Below are positions 3,208 to 15,199 of a stretch of 15,313 nucleotides of DNA, piece after piece (position 1 is the stretch's first letter; each line of letters begins with the position of its first letter). The notes beneath the pieces are model-generated. The model was not told the DNA's origin, did no database searches, and was given only the letters and a program-made list of their open reading frames with translations. The position numbers and the translations under genes are program-made. The DNA lies in assembly GCA_949012915.1 (NCBI GenBank), contig CARLBU010000004.1, forward strand, positions 1 to 15,313, written 5' to 3'. The DNA comes from an uncultured Lachnospiraceae bacterium (GTDB lineage Bacteria; Bacillota; Clostridia; Lachnospirales; Lachnospiraceae).

Positions 3208-3713
3208 CATAAAGGAATGAGAGAGGGATTTCATCATGCTTATCTTTTGATCTTTGGTTTCTTTGGTTAGGAATAGTGTAGTGCTGGCGGTCTATCTCTT
3301 GTTTTCGGTTGCTTGCTTCTTTACCGTACATGGGCATTTAGTCGTGGGATGAATTGTTCACAGGTGTTAATTAAATTTCAAGTAATAATGCTAAAAATAA
3401 TTGATATAACAACATACATCTGTTATCGTTTGTATAACGAGGTGATTCTATATGGAAGTGACTCATGGACGTAGATAGGTATATTCCATCCAATATCATA
3501 TTGTTTGGTGTATAAAATACAGGCATAAAATGATTACGGCTGATATAGAGAACTGTTTGATAGGGATAGTCAAATCGGATATTCGCAATCCGCTTTGACC
3601 AATGCAAAAATTCTAAAATTATTTTTAATAAAAAAAGAAAGAAGGAAATTTAACAAAAAAAAATAAGAATATACTGGAGCAAAGAGAAAAAAGTAGATTG
3701 TGAGACAATACAG

Positions 3714-3943
3714 CCAGAGTACTTGAAAGGGAACTGTGACTTCGGAGGAAAGTTAGAAGCTCTTAGACTTCTGTCAATCCACTAGGATTTTTTGCCATTC
3801 TCGAATGGCAAAAAAAGGGGTGTGTTTAGCCCGCTGTACGGGCGAATTGCACCCCGATCCGTCCGGTTGGATATGCCTAGATTCAGAAGTCTTAGAGCTT
3901 CTGCTTTTCGGAGAGCGGAACAGTTCCCTTTCAAGTACTCTGG
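3714..3943. repeat. Compound near-perfect inverted repeat and hairpin cluster (230 bp) of unknown identity
   Basis: 3714-3737 is the exact reverse complement of 3920-3943 (24 bp). 3756-3773 matches 3884-3901 as a reverse complement (18 bp, one central mismatch). The two arms are separated by symmetric 18-nt internal loops. The inner 110 nt carries a perfect 13-bp palindrome (3788-3815) and a GGGGTG...CACCCC hairpin with an inner GCCCG/CGGGC stem (3817-3855). Confidence 0.7.
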
Positions 3944-4018
3944 CGTTATTTCCGGGGAATTTTTTTTGGATATGAGTTTCTTCTGCTGTCTGAAAAGGTG
4001 GTATCTTTTTAGATGGTA

Positions 4019-7000: not shown

Positions 7001-7548
7001 AGCGGGTGGAGAAAACCGTGATTCCTGCAGGAATTTTTTATTATAATATTAAAGATCCGGTAATTGAAGAGACAGAAGAGATGGGAGAGGAACAGATTGA
7101 AAGGGAACTGCTTTCTAAGCTAAAGATGAACGGATTAGTCAACCGTGCATCGGAAGTAATTGCACTTTTAGATTCCTCTATGGACAAACATTCTGATGTC
7201 ATTCCGATTAGTTATAATAAAGATGGGAGTTTAAGTAAAAATTCTTCTGCTGTCGATACCAGGCAGTTTGAAGCAGTATCCGCTTATGTACGAAATCGGA
7301 TACGCCAAATGGGAGCAGAAATATTAGATGGAAATACACAGATTTCTCCTTATCGGAAGGGAACCGAAACCGGATGTGATTACTGTGAATTTCGGGAGGT
7401 CTGCGGATTTGACGAAAAGAGTACAGGATATGAATACCGAAGACTGCATGAGATGGACAATGAGGATATTTTACAAAAGATGCAGAAAGAAGTAGAGGAA
7501 GCAGCGGGACAAATGATTCGGATAGAGGAGGGAGAAGAGTGGCAGTAA
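4078..7548 (+). CDS. addB: ATP-dependent helicase/deoxyribonuclease subunit B (AddB/RexB)
   Basis: 1156 aa. The N-terminal GGSGSGKS is the degenerate AddB Walker A. The C-terminal RecB-family nuclease domain has the Fe-S cysteine cluster (GCDYCEFREVCGFD). Size and gene order immediately upstream of addA are as expected. Strong RBS. Confidence 0.9.
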   Translation: MSLQLILGGSGSGKSRYLYQELIRESMEHPEKNFLLIVPEQFSMQTQKDIVELHPRHGVMNIDILSFGRLSYRVLSEVGAAQLPVLDDTGKNLLLRKVLENKKEELKLYGQKRHTPGMVSEIKSVVSEFYQYGIREEEQEKMLACAKKKPMLYAKLSDMQVIIQEFERFTKEHYITKEEQLDVLCRVIPESNMVKRSSVWLDGFTGFTPIQYQLIGLLLMLSPKVTLTVTIDARENPYRIGGEQELFHMSKEMISHLIRLAEERQIPKEKDIVLTGEEHHRFRQAEALFWLERNLFRYPYLAYKKRQEAVSIHVAGNPAKEAAYVAREIVNLVRERGYRYRDIAIIAGDLEGYRDSLEEVLNENQLPYFVDQKKGMMGNPCVEFIRSTLEMIADNFSYESVFRYLKSNMTSIAREDVDLLENYCLAMGIRGQRQWEKLWVRSMKKDEPLELERMNQLREAVLLPIQTLSSVWKRKKGTVKEKIEALYGFLKEIGLQEKMEAYESTFREQGHLAKEKEYKQVYPLVMELFDKVVGLLGEEQISAQELNGILDAGFEELKVGLIPPSIDQILIGDMERTRLNEIRVLFFLGLNDGIIPKNSGKGGMFSQMERQFLKEEKITLSPTQKENAYIQKFYLYLNLTKPSERLYLSYSRNTQAGEAIRPSYLVYTIEKLFPALEQMDEEKREKELQQITTPEGTLHYWISKLLEFSQNPIQQNADPIFLELTSWYAGQENWKGRMDQLFEAVSYHNTESGIGKLAAAALYGPQPINSVTRLERYAACAFAHFLTYGLRLAKRQEFEMAAVDMGNLFHNSIERYSNKIKENGMKWSMVTPEDQQKMVKESVEEASADYGNHVLQSTARNAYFIDRLERIVNRTVWALKKQLQKGKFEPVNYEVFFSPADQLDALTIPISDQENMYLAGRLDRMDLYEDEEHIYIKVIDYKSGVAEFNLSSVYYGLQIQLVVYMEAAMETEQRKRVEKTVIPAGIFYYNIKDPVIEETEEMGEEQIERELLSKLKMNGLVNRASEVIALLDSSMDKHSDVIPISYNKDGSLSKNSSAVDTRQFEAVSAYVRNRIRQMGAEILDGNTQISPYRKGTETGCDYCEFREVCGFDEKSTGYEYRRLHEMDNEDILQKMQKEVEEAAGQMIRIEEGEEWQ

Positions 7549-10500
7549 ATTGGACAAAGGAACAGGAACAGGTTATCTATTTAAGGAATAGGGCAATTTT
7601 GGTTTCGGCAGCGGCAGGTTCAGGAAAAACAGCCGTTTTGGTAGAACGAATTATTCAGATGATTACAGATCGGGAGAATTCGGTGGATATTGACCGGCTT
7701 TTAATTGTTACATTTACCAATGCTGCGGCTGCAGAGATGAGAGAACGAATTACTTCTGCTATTGAACGAGCGTTAGAAGATGCCCCAGAAGATGCCCATT
7801 TACAGAGACAGCAGACATTAGTTCATACGGCACAAATTATGACAATTGACAGTTTTTGTCTGAGTGTGATTCGAGATCACTTTGATCTGTTAGACTTTGA
7901 TCCCTCTTTTCGAATCGGAGATGAGGGGGAGCGAAAACTGTTAAAATCAGATGTAGTAGCAGGACTGTTAGAGGATTACTACAGCGAGGCAGATCCGGAG
8001 TTTTTTCATTTTGTAGAGAGTTATTCAACCGGAAAAAATGACAGCGGATTAGAAGACTTGATTTTGCGGCTCTATGAATTTGCAATGAGTTATCCCGATC
8101 CGGAGGAATGGCTAAAAGGCTGCTTAAATGAATACCCTATGGAGGAACAAGCCGAGGAAGAAGCTTTGGATCAGGAAGAACAAAAAACAATGGAACAGGC
8201 TTATAGAAAAGCATTAGAGCAGACCAAATCCGTACAGTTTTTAATGGAATACCTAAAAAAACTCATCACGGACTGCTGCAGTCAGTTGGATCTGGCAAAG
8301 CAGATCTGCAGCCAGGAGAGAGGTCCCTATCAGTATCTCCCAGCTATTGAGTCTGATTTTTATTATTTAGAAAAATTAGTACAGTGCAAATCCTATCAAA
8401 GTTTTGGAAAGGCTTTAAAAGAAGTAAACTTTATCCGCTTATCCTCAAAAAAAGATTCCTCGATCGATGCTGAAAAAAAGGCAAGAGTCAAAGAGATTCG
8501 AGATCGAATCAAAGAGGAAATTCGGGGAATCGGAAAGCAGTTCTATTTTCAGCCAATCGATAAGATGCTGGAAAATATGGCAAATGTAAGCAAGACTATG
8601 GCGGTAATGGTAAGGCTGACATTAGACTTTCATACCAGATATCAGGCAAAAAAAAGGGAACGCAATTTAATGGATTTTTCGGATGTAGAACATTTGGCAC
8701 TTAATATCCTGACCGAACAGACAAAAGAGGGAAGAGTGCCGTCACTGATTGCAAAAGAATATCGGGATCAGTTTACAGAGATTATGATCGATGAATATCA
8801 GGACAGCAATTTAGTACAGGAGGCAATTTTATTTAGCGTTTCCCGTTATCAGGAAGAAATTCCCAATGTCTTTATGGTAGGAGATGTAAAACAAAGCATC
8901 TATAAGTTTCGTTTAGCAAGACCCGAACTTTTTGTGGAAAAATATCAGACATATACCACAGAAGAAAGCAATTATCAAAAAATTGATCTCCATAAAAACT
9001 TCCGCAGCCGTCCAGAGGTCTTACAGAGCGTAAATGATATCTTTTATCAGATTATGCGGAAAGAATTAGGAGGCGTAACCTATGACAATGCAGCAGCACT
9101 CTATCCGGGAGCAACATTTCCAGAAGGCGGTTCAGAGGCACAGGAGCGAAAGACCGAGTTATTGTTGATCAATAAATCCCAAGAAGAGGATACCACCGAT
9201 CTGGTAACGGCAGAAATGACAGCCCTGGTAATGGAAGCAAAGGTAATAGCCGGTCAGATTCGAAGACTGACCCATCCAGATACCGGTCTGAAAGTCCTAG
9301 ACAAAAAGTCGGGTACCTATCGGACTGCACAGTACAGGGATATTGTTGTCCTTTTGCGTACAGTAGCAGGATGGGGAGAGACGATTGTAACGATCTGCAT
9401 GGAAGAAGGAATTCCTGCCCATACCCAGTCCCAGACCGGATATTTTACCGCCTTGGAAGTACAGACGGTATTAAACCTATTAAGAATTATTGACAATCCC
9501 AGACAGGACATTCCATTAGCAGGGGTTCTGCACTCGCCGATTGGACATTTCAGCAGTTTAGAACTGGCAAAGATCCGCTCGGCTCATCTAGAAGGCGATC
9601 TCTATGAAGCACTGCTTTCTCCGGTTGGAGAAGAAGAACTAGATAAAAAAGTAAAAGCATTTTTAGAACAGTTAGAATATTTCCGGGATCAAGCAGCATG
9701 TACCCCTATTCATGAATTAATACGATTAGTCTTAAAAGTAACAGGCTATGGAGATTATGCCGCTTCCATGCCGGCAGGAACAAAGCGAAGAATGAATTTA
9801 GATATGCTGTTAGAAAAAGCGATTGCCTTTGAAGCAACCAGTTATCGGGGTGTCTTTCACTTTATCCGCTATATTGAAAAACTCAACCAATATGAGGTGG
9901 ACTTCGGAGAAGCATCGATTGTAAATGAACAGGACAACACTGTTCGGATTATGAGTATCCATAAGAGCAAAGGACTGGAATTTCCGATTGTTATTGTAGC
10001 CGGAATGGGAAAAAAGATTAATCAAATGGATGCTATGCAGAAAGCAGTGATTCATCCCGACTTAGGAGTGGGATTAGATTTTGTAAATTATGAACGCAGA
10101 ACGAAAGCTCCTGTTTTAATCAAGCGAATTATTCAAAAAAGTATTCGTTTAGAAAACCTTGGAGAAGAACTGCGGATTTTATATGTAGCACTGACAAGGG
10201 CAAAAGAAAAGCTGATTTTAACCGGTGTAACAGATAAGATGACAGAACGATATGAAAAGTGGCGGAGAGAAACAAACGGAGGAGCGGCACTGTCCTATGC
10301 TTCCCTTGCAAAAGCAGAGTCCTATCTAGATTGGATTGTACCGGCGATCACAAAAGAAAGTTGTGAAGTTACATTTTATACACCAAAGGGAGTTGCAGAG
10401 GGAGAGATTCTGCGGCAGAAAGAAAATATGGATTTATCCGATTATCAGAAGAAACTGGATTTTTCGCAATGTTTTGATCCTCAGTTAAGAGAAGAGATAG

Positions 10501-11219
10501 AAAAGAGGTTTTCTTATCTGTATCCTTATCAGAAAGAAATGTCACTTTATGCAAAAACTTCCGTATCGGAGCAGAAACGTTTGAATCAAAGAGAAATGGA
10601 AGCAGAAGAAGATACGGCATTATTAATCGAACAAAAAGAAGAGATTCTGCCGAAATTTATGCAGGGAAAATTAGAAGGTGTGGGAGGAGCAACACGAGGA
10701 ACCGCCTATCATATTTTTTTGGAAAATATGAATTTAGCAGAATTTGACGGAATGGAAGAGAACGAGATTTCAAAACGAATCGGGCAGTTAAAGCGGCAGT
10801 TAGTGGAGGAAAAGAAACTTTCAAAAGAAAATGCTAAGTTGATTTGGAATCAGAGAATTGTGGCGTTTTTAACTTCTCAGACGGCAAAGCGGATGCGGGA
10901 AGCGGAAAAGAGAGGGCAGATTTATCGGGAGACGCAGTTTGTAGTGGGGATTCCTGCTTGGAAGTTATATCGGGAGACAGAGAGTCAGGAGTTAATTTTA
11001 CTGCAGGGGGTGATTGATGTTTATTTTGAAGAGGAGGGAAAGTTGGTACTGTTGGATTATAAGACAGATGCAGTTTATGAAGGGCAGGAGGAAGTGCTGG
11101 TGATGCGGTATGAGAGGCAGTTTGAACTTTATAAAATGGCATTGGAGCAGATGACGGGGGAGGAAGTTGGGGAGATGATATTGTATTCTTTTGGATTGGG
11201 GAAAGAGATTCGAATTTAA
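7539..11219 (+). CDS. addA: ATP-dependent helicase/nuclease subunit A (AddA/RexA), UvrD-like SF1 helicase with a C-terminal RecB nuclease
   Basis: 1226 aa. The N-terminus W-TKEQEQVI...VSAAAGSGKTAVLVERII gives the UvrD motif I. The C-terminus GVIDVYFEEEGKLVLLDYKTD is a RecB-type nuclease motif. The GTG start overlaps the addB stop by 10 nt (translational coupling), with a GAGGAGGGAGAAG RBS. Confidence 0.9.
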   Translation: MAVNWTKEQEQVIYLRNRAILVSAAAGSGKTAVLVERIIQMITDRENSVDIDRLLIVTFTNAAAAEMRERITSAIERALEDAPEDAHLQRQQTLVHTAQIMTIDSFCLSVIRDHFDLLDFDPSFRIGDEGERKLLKSDVVAGLLEDYYSEADPEFFHFVESYSTGKNDSGLEDLILRLYEFAMSYPDPEEWLKGCLNEYPMEEQAEEEALDQEEQKTMEQAYRKALEQTKSVQFLMEYLKKLITDCCSQLDLAKQICSQERGPYQYLPAIESDFYYLEKLVQCKSYQSFGKALKEVNFIRLSSKKDSSIDAEKKARVKEIRDRIKEEIRGIGKQFYFQPIDKMLENMANVSKTMAVMVRLTLDFHTRYQAKKRERNLMDFSDVEHLALNILTEQTKEGRVPSLIAKEYRDQFTEIMIDEYQDSNLVQEAILFSVSRYQEEIPNVFMVGDVKQSIYKFRLARPELFVEKYQTYTTEESNYQKIDLHKNFRSRPEVLQSVNDIFYQIMRKELGGVTYDNAAALYPGATFPEGGSEAQERKTELLLINKSQEEDTTDLVTAEMTALVMEAKVIAGQIRRLTHPDTGLKVLDKKSGTYRTAQYRDIVVLLRTVAGWGETIVTICMEEGIPAHTQSQTGYFTALEVQTVLNLLRIIDNPRQDIPLAGVLHSPIGHFSSLELAKIRSAHLEGDLYEALLSPVGEEELDKKVKAFLEQLEYFRDQAACTPIHELIRLVLKVTGYGDYAASMPAGTKRRMNLDMLLEKAIAFEATSYRGVFHFIRYIEKLNQYEVDFGEASIVNEQDNTVRIMSIHKSKGLEFPIVIVAGMGKKINQMDAMQKAVIHPDLGVGLDFVNYERRTKAPVLIKRIIQKSIRLENLGEELRILYVALTRAKEKLILTGVTDKMTERYEKWRRETNGGAALSYASLAKAESYLDWIVPAITKESCEVTFYTPKGVAEGEILRQKENMDLSDYQKKLDFSQCFDPQLREEIEKRFSYLYPYQKEMSLYAKTSVSEQKRLNQREMEAEEDTALLIEQKEEILPKFMQGKLEGVGGATRGTAYHIFLENMNLAEFDGMEENEISKRIGQLKRQLVEEKKLSKENAKLIWNQRIVAFLTSQTAKRMREAEKRGQIYRETQFVVGIPAWKLYRETESQELILLQGVIDVYFEEEGKLVLLDYKTDAVYEGQEEVLVMRYERQFELYKMALEQMTGEEVGEMILYSFGLGKEIRI

Positions 11220-11253
11220 GCGAATGATTTGAATTTAAACGAATATATGTTGG

Positions 11254-11316
11254 GGGGACGCTGACATCATTGGGTGATTTTTCGCTCAGGGGACGCTGAC
11301 ACCACTGGATGATTCT
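11254..11316. repeat. Tandem direct repeat, 2 x about 27 bp (GGGGACGCTGACAYCAYTGGRTGATT)
   Basis: 11254-11280 and 11289-11315 are near-identical. The second copy forms the left stem of hairpin element copy 1. Confidence 0.7.
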
Positions 11317-11433
11317 CTGCTGGGGCCGTTTGCACTAAGGCTTCCTCGCAGCGGACACATAAGGCACGAAAAGACCGTGCCTAAGTGCCGGCGGGAAGCA
11401 ATACCCCTGCAGAGATTCATCCAGTGGTGTCAG
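11294..11433. repeat. Hairpin repeat element, copy 1. A 26-bp stem (one mismatch) encloses a 92-bp core at 11320..11411.
   Basis: 11294-11319 is the reverse complement of 11408-11433. The 92-bp core is 100% identical, in inverted orientation, to 11871-11962. The core contains an internal imperfect hairpin (AGGCACG aaaagac CGTGCCT). Confidence 0.75.
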
Positions 11434-11665
11434 CTGTGTATTCCAACCGGAACAGTCGCAGTATTTTGGTTGATTAAAACCGTTTTTGTGTGATTTTAGA
11501 TAGTTTAACCTCATCAAGGAAGTCCCCTGCTTCTAAGCCGCCAAGGCGAAAGCGGTGGGTTGGGGGCAGGTGGGGTACAAGCCCTATTTGACAAGCTGCG
11601 ATAGCAGCATAGGATTACAAATTTCTTTTGAATTCCAACAGTCGGAGTAGAGAATTTTTACGGGG

Positions 11666-11860
11666 CGTTGTTTTTAGGAGGAATAAACCAGCAGACCGAA
11701 TAAAATATTTTTGTGAAGTATCATTTCCAGGAGAAACAAGCTAATAGGCAGAGTAAAAATGTTTGTGAGGCATTGTTTCCAGGAGGAACAAGCCAATAGG
11801 CGGAATAAAAACGTTTATGAGGCATTATTTCTAGGGGGAACGAAACAGCGGGTAGCATAG
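11666..11860. repeat. Degenerate tandem repeat array, about four copies of a roughly 52-bp unit, with a diverged fifth copy near 11445-11500
   Basis: The units at 11666-11718, 11719-11770, 11771-11822 and 11823-~11860 share the consensus CATTGTTTCCAGGAGGAACAAGCCAATAGGCGGAATAAAAACGTTTATGAGG. Every position drifts, and there is no alternation of conserved repeats with unique spacers. Confidence 0.65.
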
Positions 11861-11983
11861 AGAGAATCTTTGCAGGGGTATTGCTTCCCGCCGGCACTTA
11901 GGCACGGTCTTTTCGTGCCTTATGTGTCCGCTGCGAGGAAGCCTTAGTGCAAACGGCCCCAGCAAAGAATCTCTCTATGCTAC
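11852..11983. repeat. Hairpin repeat element, copy 2 (inverted). A 22-bp stem (one mismatch) encloses the 92-bp core at 11871..11962.
   Basis: The core is the exact reverse complement of 11320-11411. The flanking stem 11852-11873 pairs with 11962-11983. The stem sequences differ from those of copy 1, except for the core-proximal GATTCTYTGCTGGGG / CCCCTGCARAGATTC. Confidence 0.75.
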
Positions 11984-12067
11984 CTGCGTCCGATTCTACA
12001 ATATCAATATCTGGTTTATAATTGCTGAAGTGGTTTTCTTTTTTTCTGATAACTTTTCTTTAGAAAT

Positions 12068-12097
12068 TGAATAAGCCTTGAAAATTAGGGAAATACT
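12068..12097 (+). promoter_or_regulatory. Candidate forespore sigma-G/sigma-F-type promoter (TGAATA-N17-AATACTC) for the SASP gene
   Basis: It resembles the sigma-G consensus GHATR-N17/18-CATXHTA and lies about 35 nt upstream of the ATG. The match is weak and this is inference only. Confidence 0.3.
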
Positions 12098-12130
12098 CTT
12101 GGTAAAATTAGAGTATTGGAGGAGAGAGTA

Positions 12131-12352
12131 ATGCCGACTAAGAAAAAGAAAGAAATTGATTTGGAGAATTTAACACCAGAGGATGAGATGAAATTAGAAA
12201 TTGCAGAGGAAATTGGGGTGTTGGATAAAGTGCTGAAAGGGGGATGGGGAACGCTTTCTGCACGGGAAACCGGACGTATCGGCGGAATTCTTGGGACACG
12301 GAATCGAAAAAAGAAAGCACAAGAGGAAAAAGCATCTCAGGAGAATAGTTGA
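12131..12352 (+). CDS. Alpha/beta-type small acid-soluble spore protein (SASP)
   Basis: 73 aa. EMKLEIAEEIGVL and ...GTLSARETGRIGGIL match both alpha/beta SASP signature motifs. I use ATG 12131 with RBS GGAGGAG at 12118-12124 rather than the ORF-track TTG at 12116. Confidence 0.85.
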   Translation: MPTKKKKEIDLENLTPEDEMKLEIAEEIGVLDKVLKGGWGTLSARETGRIGGILGTRNRKKKAQEEKASQENS

Positions 12353-14142: not shown

Positions 14143-14481
14143 ATGAGAGAAGAGAGGGCGAGGAATAATTCTATGGAGACGAAAGAAACAGGAGTTCAAT
14201 TTGAGGAGTTAAAGGCTTGTATTGATCGGGCAGACGATTGTATTAGGGAAATTTTAGATAAGACAAAAAATTTGGATAAAATTGAAAGTCAGCAAAAAAT
14301 TTTAGCATTGAATGCTTCAATAGAAGCAGCACGAGCCGGAGATGCCGGAAAAGGATTTGCGATTGTTGCTACAAAAGTCGGGGAATTGGCAAGCAGTTCA
14401 GCAGCGGTAAATAGTTCTATTAAGCAGTCGTTAGAAGATTTGGATCGAATTATTTTAGAGATGAAAAAATTGGAAAAATAG
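14143..14481 (+). CDS. Small (112 aa) protein carrying only the highly conserved MCP signalling hairpin-tip motif
   Basis: [34 protein letters not shown] is near-identical to the MCP signalling-domain consensus (LLALNAAIEAARAGEqGrGFAVVAdEVrkLAerS). It has no transmembrane, HAMP or methylation helices. It starts 11 nt after the sufB stop (RBS aagga) and ends at the operon terminator. Confidence 0.6.
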
Positions 14482-14736: not shown

Positions 14737-15099
14737 GGGGTTGTACTGGTTTCGACGGGGATTATGAAGTTGGAGAAGCCACCTGCGGGTCGGAACCGCA
14801 TTAGTAAACCGAAAATTAAATATAAACGCAAACGAAGATTACGCGTTCGCTGCTTAATAGCAGCTGTCGCTCTTAGGTAGCTTACTGCTTAAGAATCCGG
14901 CATCAAGGAGGTAAGGAACTTTGTATCCAAAGCTTTGAGGGTATAAAAGAAAAATGAAGCTACTAAAGCCGGAAACCTGTCCATGGGTGTCCGATAGAGG
15001 GAACCGTATAGAAAAAGGCTATGCATAAAACAGGGACTGTGGTGGGAGATGCTTTGATGGAGGAGTCTTCGGACAGGGGTTCGATTCCCCTCAGCTCCA
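14737..15099 (+). ncRNA. ssrA: tmRNA (transfer-messenger RNA, SsrA)
   Basis: The 5' end GGGGTTGTACTGGTTTCGACGGGG and the 3' tRNA-like end GGACAGGGGTTCGATTCCCCTCAGCTCCA form an acceptor stem with the G3:U70 alanine identity pair. The internal tag ORF GCA AAC GAA GAT TAC GCG TTC GCT GCT TAA TAG (14828-14857) encodes ANEDYAFAA and ends in a double stop. CCA is not encoded. Confidence 0.9.
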
Positions 15100-15125
15100 T
15101 CGGTTAAACGTAACCGTGTTATGTT

Positions 15126-15199
15126 CGAGGTGTGGCTCAGTTTGGTAGAGCGCTACGTTCGGGACGTAGAAGTCGCGTGTTCGAATCACGTCACCTCGA
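15126..15199 (+). tRNA. tRNA-Pro (anticodon CGG)
   Basis: A manual cloverleaf gives a 7-bp acceptor stem CGAGGTG/CACCTCG, U8, D-stem GCTC/GAGC, anticodon stem CTACG/CGTAG, anticodon loop TTCGGGA (U33, CGG, G37) and T-arm GCGTG-TTCGAAT-CACGT. It is 74 nt, with no encoded CCA. Confidence 0.85.

Follow-up and report, generated by a model that had tools for sequence, protein, structure and literature searches.

Why does the spacer between addA and the gene for a small acid-soluble spore protein (SASP) of a gut bacterium contain two long inverted repeats that match each other to the last base? The question is raised by a 15,313-nt stretch of the uncultured Lachnospiraceae assembly GCA_949012915.1 (contig CARLBU010000004.1, hereafter the window), for which the initial annotation offered an invertible switch, a pair of small mobile elements or a structured RNA. 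Comparison of the window with a set of fetched loci (designated L001 etc.) indicates that each repeat is probably the invariant core of a copy of one dispersed family, termed here fam1, the two copies having been acquired independently, and that fam1 is probably a non-autonomous mobile hairpin DNA.

The repeat itself is real and two bases longer than the 92/92 match reported at first: every base of 11318-11411 recurs in reverse complement at 11871-11964 (94/94), and the identity ends abruptly on both sides. The whole elements (11291-11437 and 11845-11991, 147 nt) are 86% complementary to one another, and each core is enclosed, as had been proposed, by a stem of its own, with arms at 11295-11325/11404-11434 in copy 1 (94% complementary) and at 11848-11878/11957-11987 in copy 2 (90%). 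A single hairpin of about 148 nt is predicted for each copy, and folding both strands of both copies as RNA gives -82 to -93 kcal/mol (z = -10 to -11), which none of 200 shuffled sequences equalled. From the outside inwards the hairpin comprises 18 bp, a 1x1 mismatch, 7 bp, a second 1x1 mismatch, 4-5 G-C pairs and an asymmetric branched tip. About ten positions of the outer 18 bp differ between copy 1 and copy 2, with the changes compensated within each copy. The mismatch positions are polymorphic among strains in both copies (11313, 11866, 11969), T.T being replaced by A.T and A.A by T.A or A.T, so that some strains are Watson-Crick at these sites; arm-to-arm correction within the palindrome could be the source of this polymorphism.

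The pair belongs to a family with many members. A core pattern of 21 specified bases (AGGCACG-N7-CGTGCCTAAGTGCC), scanned against 185,579 species representatives, gave 72 matches at 64 loci, all in two Lachnospiraceae metagenome-assembled genomes (MAGs), CBFFYP01 and the mouse-gut CAJUEI01. With a profile hidden Markov model (HMM) made from 69 aligned copies, 100 full-length copies were found in the first locus set (~0.66 Mb), and more in loci fetched later. The family thus occurs in at least three related Lachnospiraceae, the window species, CBFFYP01 and CAJUEI01; a GerA protein identity of 87% and a common gene order mark CBFFYP01 as a sister species of the window organism. Roughly half of the ~100 copies are singletons, and two subfamilies (A and B) can be distinguished. 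The number of dispersed copies, together with a site that is empty in related species, bears out the earlier suggestion of a pair of small non-autonomous repeats.

All fam1 copies are non-coding, about 165-190 bp in size, and built to one layout: the head GGACGC, preceded by a G-rich lead-in, is followed by the ~94-nt core between a purine-rich 5' arm and the 3' arm that complements it, and then by a tail of the form GCTGTGTATTCC..CCGGAAAA (short form GCTGTGTATTCC..GGAAAA). The tail does not simply repeat the head in inverted form. The core is nearly invariant, asymmetric and structured, and the outer stem of 24-30 bp varies in sequence from copy to copy with its pairing retained. Mean pairwise identity amounts to 0.33-0.40 in the flanks, 0.84-0.93 in the head, 0.48-0.63 in the variable arms, 0.95-0.98 in the core and 0.52-0.58 in the tail. 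When CAJUEI01 cores are compared with the window core over 93 positions, three copies show no difference at all and seven show one. The perfect identity of the window pair is therefore a property of the family, and it need not be put down to a recent duplication of one copy or to gene conversion, as had been suggested, since the core is nearly invariant across the family and across species.

Pairing of the arms was evaluated on the family alignment. Of the 47 pairs predicted by RNAalifold, 29 carry compensatory changes on both sides. Standard pairs occupy 97.3% of the alignment cells, as against 81.4% with shuffled partners (a value as high as the observed one arose in 0 of 500 shuffles), and pairing drops to 34-42% when partners are slid by one to three columns. 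In the outer stem all 24 pairs have changes on both sides, many showing all four Watson-Crick types, and five core pairs covary between the two subfamilies. The stem pairs comprise 1550 Watson-Crick, 21 G.T, 57 A.C and 28 other combinations. An RNA helix under selection would not usually be so poor in wobble pairs, and since A.C is in excess on the sense strand, wobbles would fall on the complementary strand; this composition is weak evidence that the pairing that matters is that of the DNA or of the bottom strand. The earlier proposal of a structured RNA may hold, given the very strong covariation, whereas the almost purely Watson-Crick stem fits a DNA palindrome better and neither element matches a known family: a comparison of 11150-12200 with Rfam 15 (gathering thresholds and E <= 10) returned only chance snoRNA and riboswitch fragments outside the elements. 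Copying of the variable stems from target DNA was also considered and dropped, as the stems are homologous (50-63% identity, against ~33-40% in the flanks) and the conserved head and tail lie outside them.

Copies of fam1 are extragenic and stand beside diverse housekeeping genes; transporters, kinases and regulators are the commonest Pfam families in 144 open reading frames (ORFs) near them. The gene on the head side lies on the same strand in 43 of 63 scorable cases, its stop codon a median of ~35 nt before the head, and spacers between co-directional genes hold 21 sense and 11 antisense copies. Where two fam1 copies are neighbours within 2 kb, they are arranged tail-to-tail with heads outward in 25 of 26 cases, at spacings of 43-1673 nt, and the window pair is a typical doublet of this kind. 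A second abundant family, fam3 (~355 nt), has a covarying long stem and shares the fam1 frame, with the head GAGGACGCC and a tail of the type GGCTGTTTCTTGAC..GGAAC, around an interior unrelated to that of fam1. All 27 neighbour pairs of either family closer than 500 nt (18 fam1-fam1, 4 mixed, 5 fam3-fam3) are tail-to-tail. Since mixed and fam3 pairs also obey the rule, it belongs to the frame and not to the interior.

The spacers of the 25 fam1 doublets have no similarity to one another, which speaks against doublets being composite units. By gene setting, 14 doublets are co-directional, 5 convergent and 2 divergent, and in 4 one flank has no scorable gene; in most of the co-directional doublets, one head is no more than ~40 nt from the upstream stop codon. 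Convergent transcription units were rejected as the cause of the tail-to-tail rule, only 5 of 25 doublets being convergent. Two individual spacers contain sequences of separate interest. The 1.7-kb spacer of a doublet in L024 carries, at ~2460-2860, about 12 tandem 33-bp repeats (AGTCAGAAAATATCTATTGTCCCCAATATAAGA) of iteron-like appearance upstream of two small ORFs. In the spacer of a doublet in L037 (2230-2560) there is a coding sequence, preceded by a ribosome-binding site of its own, for a small hydrophobic peptide rich in Cys and Gly.

Gain and turnover of copies can be followed between species. In three species with the same gene order and AddA proteins 85%, 75% and 89% identical, the addA-SASP spacer measures 58, 166 and 160 nt, respectively, and contains no element; with the 160-nt spacer (L073) the window can be aligned only over the last ~80 nt before the SASP start codon. 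Downstream of GerA, the window species has a subfamily-A copy 105 nt after the stop codon and the sister species a subfamily-B copy 5 nt after it. The stem of window copy 1 is closely matched by that of a CAJUEI01 copy at an unrelated locus, from which it differs by compensated substitutions, and near-identical stems occur at different loci of CBFFYP01. Products of decay are also common, namely head-only duplicates, tail arrays (in the window and in L030) and a core-deleted copy (L083 12423-12531, minus strand), in which head, arms and tail are intact and ~54 central model positions are gone.

The 911-nt addA-SASP spacer is, by comparison with these relatives, a nest of insertions (Table 1). 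The addA stop codon lies 70 nt ahead of the head of copy 1. The tandem duplication of the copy 1 stem noted earlier proved to be a solo head with part of the 5' arm, and comparable head-only duplicates precede other fam1 copies in L020, L025, L036 and L060. The 52-bp tandem repeats described between the cores were recovered by TRF, and an equivalent tail array with a 38-nt period follows the L030 copy of fam1. The AGGAGG motifs within them are present as described; they represent the tail motif of fam1 read in reverse complement (minus strand, TTCCTCCTGGAAA) and not ribosome-binding sites. Both the G-rich tract and the TTGACA proposed as a -35 element fall within a degenerate copy of a further repeat, fam2, and promoter-like sites in the segment are at chance level (2 against 1.6 expected). 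The statement that no annotated gene explains the region holds.

Table 1. Features of the addA-SASP spacer and related elements; coordinates refer to the window unless a locus is named.
Feature	Coordinates	Strand	Description and evidence
fam3 copy	~3690..3965	-	Upstream of addB, between it and HxlR-family gene; arms 3707-3737/3920-3950, 31 nt, 94% complementary
addA	7539..11219	+	Upstream gene; ORF list; 100% match to proteins named AddA; UvrD-helicase/PDDEXK domains
Solo head + 5'-arm remnant (GGGGACGCTGACATCATTGGGTGATT...)	11254..11288	+	Partial tandem duplicate of copy 1 start (11254-11286 vs 11289-11321), 82% identity
fam1 copy 1	11289..11455	+ (sense to addA)	HMM match 11291-11454, E = 3e-42; fold; alignment; head GGGGACGC 11289-11296, core 11318-11411, tail GCTGTGTATTCCAACCGGAACA ~11433-11455
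Unique spacer, 53 nt	11456..11508	.	No repeat matches; ends in TTTAA, the fam2 insertion motif
fam2 copy, truncated and degenerate	11509..11617	+	Positions 1-120 of the 160-bp element; alignment to full fam2 copy
Tandem array, period 52, ~3.2 copies	11676..11841	-	Copy 2 tail + ~30 nt; TRF and direct repeats
fam1 copy 2	11828..11993	-	Tail-to-tail with copy 1; HMM match 11991-11828, E = 2e-43; fold; core 11871-11964, head (GCGTCC on + strand) 11986-11991
SASP upstream region	12054..12130	+	Conserved in a related species; outside the insertion nest; alignable with L073
SASP gene, alpha/beta-type	12131..12352	+	Downstream gene; Pfam PF00269, E = 2.9e-7
Other fam2 sites	L004 433-592; L005 9290-9520; L011 589-710; L080 ~9700

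The fam2 repeat is a dispersed 160-bp element, often found just past a fam1 tail, and its copy number in the addA-SASP spacer is 0, 1 or 2 depending on the strain. Comparison with L001 shows a clean 160-bp insertion of fam2 splitting an FMN-reductase gene in L004, with neither target duplication nor terminal inverted repeats, and TTTAA precedes the element at all four junctions seen. Against Rfam, fam2 gives a sub-threshold partial match to Clostridiales-1 RNA (18 bits, E = 0.08). When the region was compared by BLAST with plasmids and phages, plasmids gave no match and phages a single weak one, which involves the fam2 part only (the unannotated gut phage record MT835578.1). The element looks like an IS200/IS605-type miniature element. 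In the window, positions 3485-3574 hold what looks like a short N-terminal remnant of an IS200/IS605 TnpA (a weak match to the probe, E = 0.006), which adjoins a 27-nt fragment of a fam2 end (3569-3595) and suggests a decayed parent element upstream of addB.

The interior of fam3 holds a T8-hairpin-A7 motif, and comparison of the family with Rfam gave nothing meaningful. In the window copy the interior includes GCCATTCTCGAATGGC flanked by T- and A-runs, with the look of a bidirectional terminator. Acquisition of this family is illustrated by the RuvB-ZapA spacer, which measures 121 nt in the window species (L080 12227-12348) and 936 nt in the sister species (L083 15688-16483). What the sister species has in addition is a fam3 doublet in tail-to-tail arrangement. 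The 62 nt between its two copies are missing from the empty site, so the inner spacer of a doublet need not be ancestral intergenic sequence. The sister-species assemblies L083 and L084 are 99.7% identical between two fam3 copies and unrelated beyond them, with breakpoints near 3911 and 16212, which may reflect a rearrangement at these repeats or a chimeric assembly that they provoked.

It is intriguing to consider how a hairpin of this kind might propagate. We infer that copying of fam1 proceeds through a folded single strand, whose long stem, constrained in pairing but not in sequence, would bring together the head and the tail, the likely cut-and-join sites. The stem would also offer the conserved asymmetric core to a protein acting in trans. 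To judge from the analogy of REPIN/RAYT and IS200/IS605 systems, this protein could be an HUH-type enzyme, but none was identified in the loci. Only lineages retaining both pairing and core would go on copying, and selection on copying ability would in this way account for covarying stems beside an invariant core without any host function. Transcripts of genes whose stop codon is closely followed by a copy, such as addA with copy 1, would carry a stable hairpin in the 3' untranslated region (UTR), and this hairpin might incidentally influence mRNA ends.

Several observations weigh against this interpretation of fam1 as mobile DNA. No strain-level pair of filled and empty fam1 sites was found among L001-L006 or L080-L086, and the cross-species comparisons of filled and empty sites at addA-SASP and RuvB-ZapA are too diverged to fix the ends to the base. 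The initial annotation had looked to dispersed copies with target-site duplications as the mark of a miniature inverted-repeat transposable element: the copies are many, whereas no 3-6 bp duplication exceeded the permutation null in 95 copies, in a fixed-offset test made without exact ends. No transposase or recombinase is enriched in the Pfam content of the 144 ORFs, which lie within 1.5 kb of fam1, clustering of 419 ORFs in fam1 loci yielded only transporters and spurious ORFs across repeats, and no parent insertion sequence (IS) is present in 0.66 Mb of fam1 loci. Probes for IS200 and RAYT proteins retrieved only the tnpA of L050 and the short window remnant; no RAYT was found with them in the fetched loci by tblastn. 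The IS200/IS605 tnpA of L050, confirmed from its ORF, adjoins a fam3 copy, and nothing ties it to fam1. Near-invariance of a 94-nt core in every copy and across species is not expected of a purely selfish element and could instead mean host-level selection or gene conversion, and heads that follow same-strand stop codons also fit a role in RNA. Finally, the tail-to-tail rule is predicted neither by a mobile element nor by a host RNA.

A more far-reaching idea, which we put forward tentatively and hold to be less likely than not, is that fam1 and fam3 together represent an undescribed hairpin-dependent mobile system in Clostridia, or else a core put to use by the host at ~100 gene ends. In the former version, the frame of head (GGACGCC), pairing-constrained stem and tail (GGCTGT...) may carry different structured interiors, and the enzyme mechanism may make new copies land tail-to-tail with resident ones. 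In the latter, the 94-nt core could be a functional module, either protein-binding or a catalytic RNA or single-stranded DNA (ssDNA).

Among the rival explanations, the one that survives best, and which we nevertheless consider unlikely, is that fam1 is an RNA element used by the host, its 3' UTR hairpin, with a stem of ~30 bp and the conserved core, serving as a 3'-end stabiliser, an RNase III site, a terminator or insulator, or a protein-binding RNA. Under the same explanation, tail-to-tail doublets would shield the intergenic segment from transcription arriving on either side. The distance of heads from same-strand stop codons (median ~35 nt, 43/63), the head found close behind the upstream stop in most co-directional doublets, the very stable fold of either strand and the strong covariation of stem and core are all compatible with such a role. 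The near-invariance of the core among copies and species is likewise what would be expected of a binding site under purifying selection, and the T8-hairpin-A7 motif of fam3 resembles a bidirectional terminator. However, G.U pairs are nearly missing from the stem and are outnumbered by A.C on the sense strand (21 against 57), there is no U-tract 3' of the hairpin and a terminator scan was empty, the orientation bias is modest (21 sense against 11 antisense), close relatives lack the element at the same genes, no Rfam family is matched, and the solo heads, tail arrays and deleted copies resemble the decay of selfish DNA.

A phase-variation switch, in which the cores would be recombination sites and the 459-bp middle would flip a promoter towards or away from the SASP gene, is very improbable. 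It was suggested by the long identical inverted repeats around a sub-kb non-coding segment, and it might also draw on the break of assembly L006 inside copy 2 and on one sigma-70-like match in the segment. Yet all five same-species assemblies that span the region (97-100% identity) have it in the same orientation. Inversion from core to core would pair the outer arm of one copy with the inner arm of its partner and, as partner arms differ, would break the hairpins; across the 25 doublets, own-arm pairing is on average 93% Watson-Crick (lowest single copy 56%) and cross-arm pairing 62%, and these averages, taken across doublets rather than pair by pair, give no sign of a sizeable share of doublets in the flipped state. 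The repeats are moreover members of a ~100-copy family, roughly half of it singletons, the doublet spacers are mutually unrelated, promoter-like sites do not exceed chance and no terminator-like site is present, no recombinase occurs among the window ORFs, and a contig break such as that in L006 is the usual effect of a multi-copy repeat on an assembler. Least credible of all, and refuted by the identity of the core throughout the family, is a scar of local inverted duplication or gene conversion between the two copies, for which the 94/94 identity with its abrupt drop at both ends would speak: doublet partners are no more alike than random copies of the same subfamily (stem identity 0.60 vs 0.64, core 0.91 vs 0.90), and doublets are therefore not local inverted duplications, the window core recurs with 0-1 differences in 10 CAJUEI01 copies, and the stems differ at ~10 of 18 outer positions, each self-compensated.

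Searches of viral and metagenome contigs gave no further members of the family. The fam1 core has no match in viral contigs, and an 18-base core pattern produced six matches in metagenome contigs, none of which is fam1: four are one GC-rich sequence with ~39 nt in common with the core, and two look like chance in unrelated DNA. No prior description of fam1 was found in the literature on miniature inverted-repeat transposable elements (MITEs) in Lachnospiraceae, on REPIN/RAYT in Firmicutes, on Clostridiales-1 and on interspersed repeats. As far as can be told, fam1 is an undescribed family of REPIN/MITE-like palindromic repeats.

In its logic fam1 appears closest, by analogy, to REPINs, in which the hairpin is preserved by compensatory change around conserved parts (PMC3116915). 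Like them, fam1 is extragenic and non-coding, occurs in tens to hundreds of copies, is predicted to form a long ssDNA or RNA hairpin and is found in clusters. The differences are nonetheless substantial. REPINs conserve two REP ends and the tip less so, whereas fam1 conserves a 94-nt tip and keeps a short head and tail around a hypervariable stem; fam1 measures 165-190 bp, whereas in a GI REPIN the two conserved 16-mers are spaced by 71 bp; and its hosts are Clostridia, while REPINs, which are hairpin-forming REP doublets moved by RAYT transposases, occur in Pseudomonas and Enterobacteria. Doublets of whole elements, 43-1673 nt apart across unrelated spacers, and a frame that holds different interiors further set fam1 apart.

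Other families of small repeats offer partial parallels. ERIC/IRU (~127 bp), Correia/NEMIS, RUP and BOX are imperfect intergenic palindromes of 100-200 bp, multi-copy, lineage-restricted and often transcribed, and the long hairpins that they form in RNA can be cleaved by RNases and alter the stability of flanking mRNA. These families have sequence-conserved terminal inverted repeats, and Correia and ERIC have a TA target duplication, whereas the arms of fam1 differ by copy, no 3-6 bp duplication was detected at fixed offsets and no related IS was found. Neither a strict tail-to-tail pairing nor one frame with different interiors is a known feature of such families. As with MITEs derived from DDE transposons, fam1 is short, non-coding, multi-copy and dispersed; its arms, however, are only 48-63% identical between copies, in place of conserved terminal inverted repeats. 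Its asymmetric ends and the lack of a target duplication at the fixed offsets tested recall palindrome-associated transposable elements (PATEs) derived from IS200/IS605, and a hairpin-dependent single-strand mechanism is plausible. The ends of IS200/IS605 each have a small subterminal hairpin, whereas those of fam1 and fam3 are joined by one long stem; for fam2, lying 3' of TTTAA and beside a tnpA remnant, with neither target-site duplications nor terminal inverted repeats, the PATE fit is good. With invertons the window shares inverted repeats around a short non-coding segment upstream of a gene, but its repeats exceed those of typical invertons 5- to 10-fold in length and are members of a dispersed family. 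Integron attC sites were rejected as a model, since their conserved and variable parts are arranged the opposite way and fam1 copies do not lie in one array.

Elsewhere in the window, a tmRNA gene (14737-15102, 160 bits) is immediately followed by a tRNA gene (15126-15199), and the ORF just upstream of the former (14143-14481) encodes only a 112-aa fragment of a methyl-accepting chemotaxis protein (MCP) signalling domain. Positions 1-324 are 92% identical to L029 2096-2406 of the sister species, well above the 73-85% of flanking core genes in related species (L071-L073), and may represent part of a conserved gene or a further mobile sequence common to both.

Interspersed palindromic repeats have been well studied in Proteobacteria (REP/REPIN, ERIC, Correia), whereas those of Clostridia, the dominant bacteria of the gut, have received very little attention. 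In this respect fam1 provides an unusually clean natural experiment, in which ~100 copies show a 24-bp stem drifting under pure pairing constraint beside a frozen 94-nt core, one frame holds two interiors, and an almost absolute tail-to-tail rule governs neighbours. In practical terms, repeats of this kind break MAG assemblies, mimic invertons in PhaseFinder-type screens and yield spurious ORFs. If a dedicated enzyme is found, hairpin-guided DNA mobility would be extended to Firmicutes, and its activity could explain intergenic expansion such as that of the addA-SASP spacer from ~60-160 nt to 911 nt.

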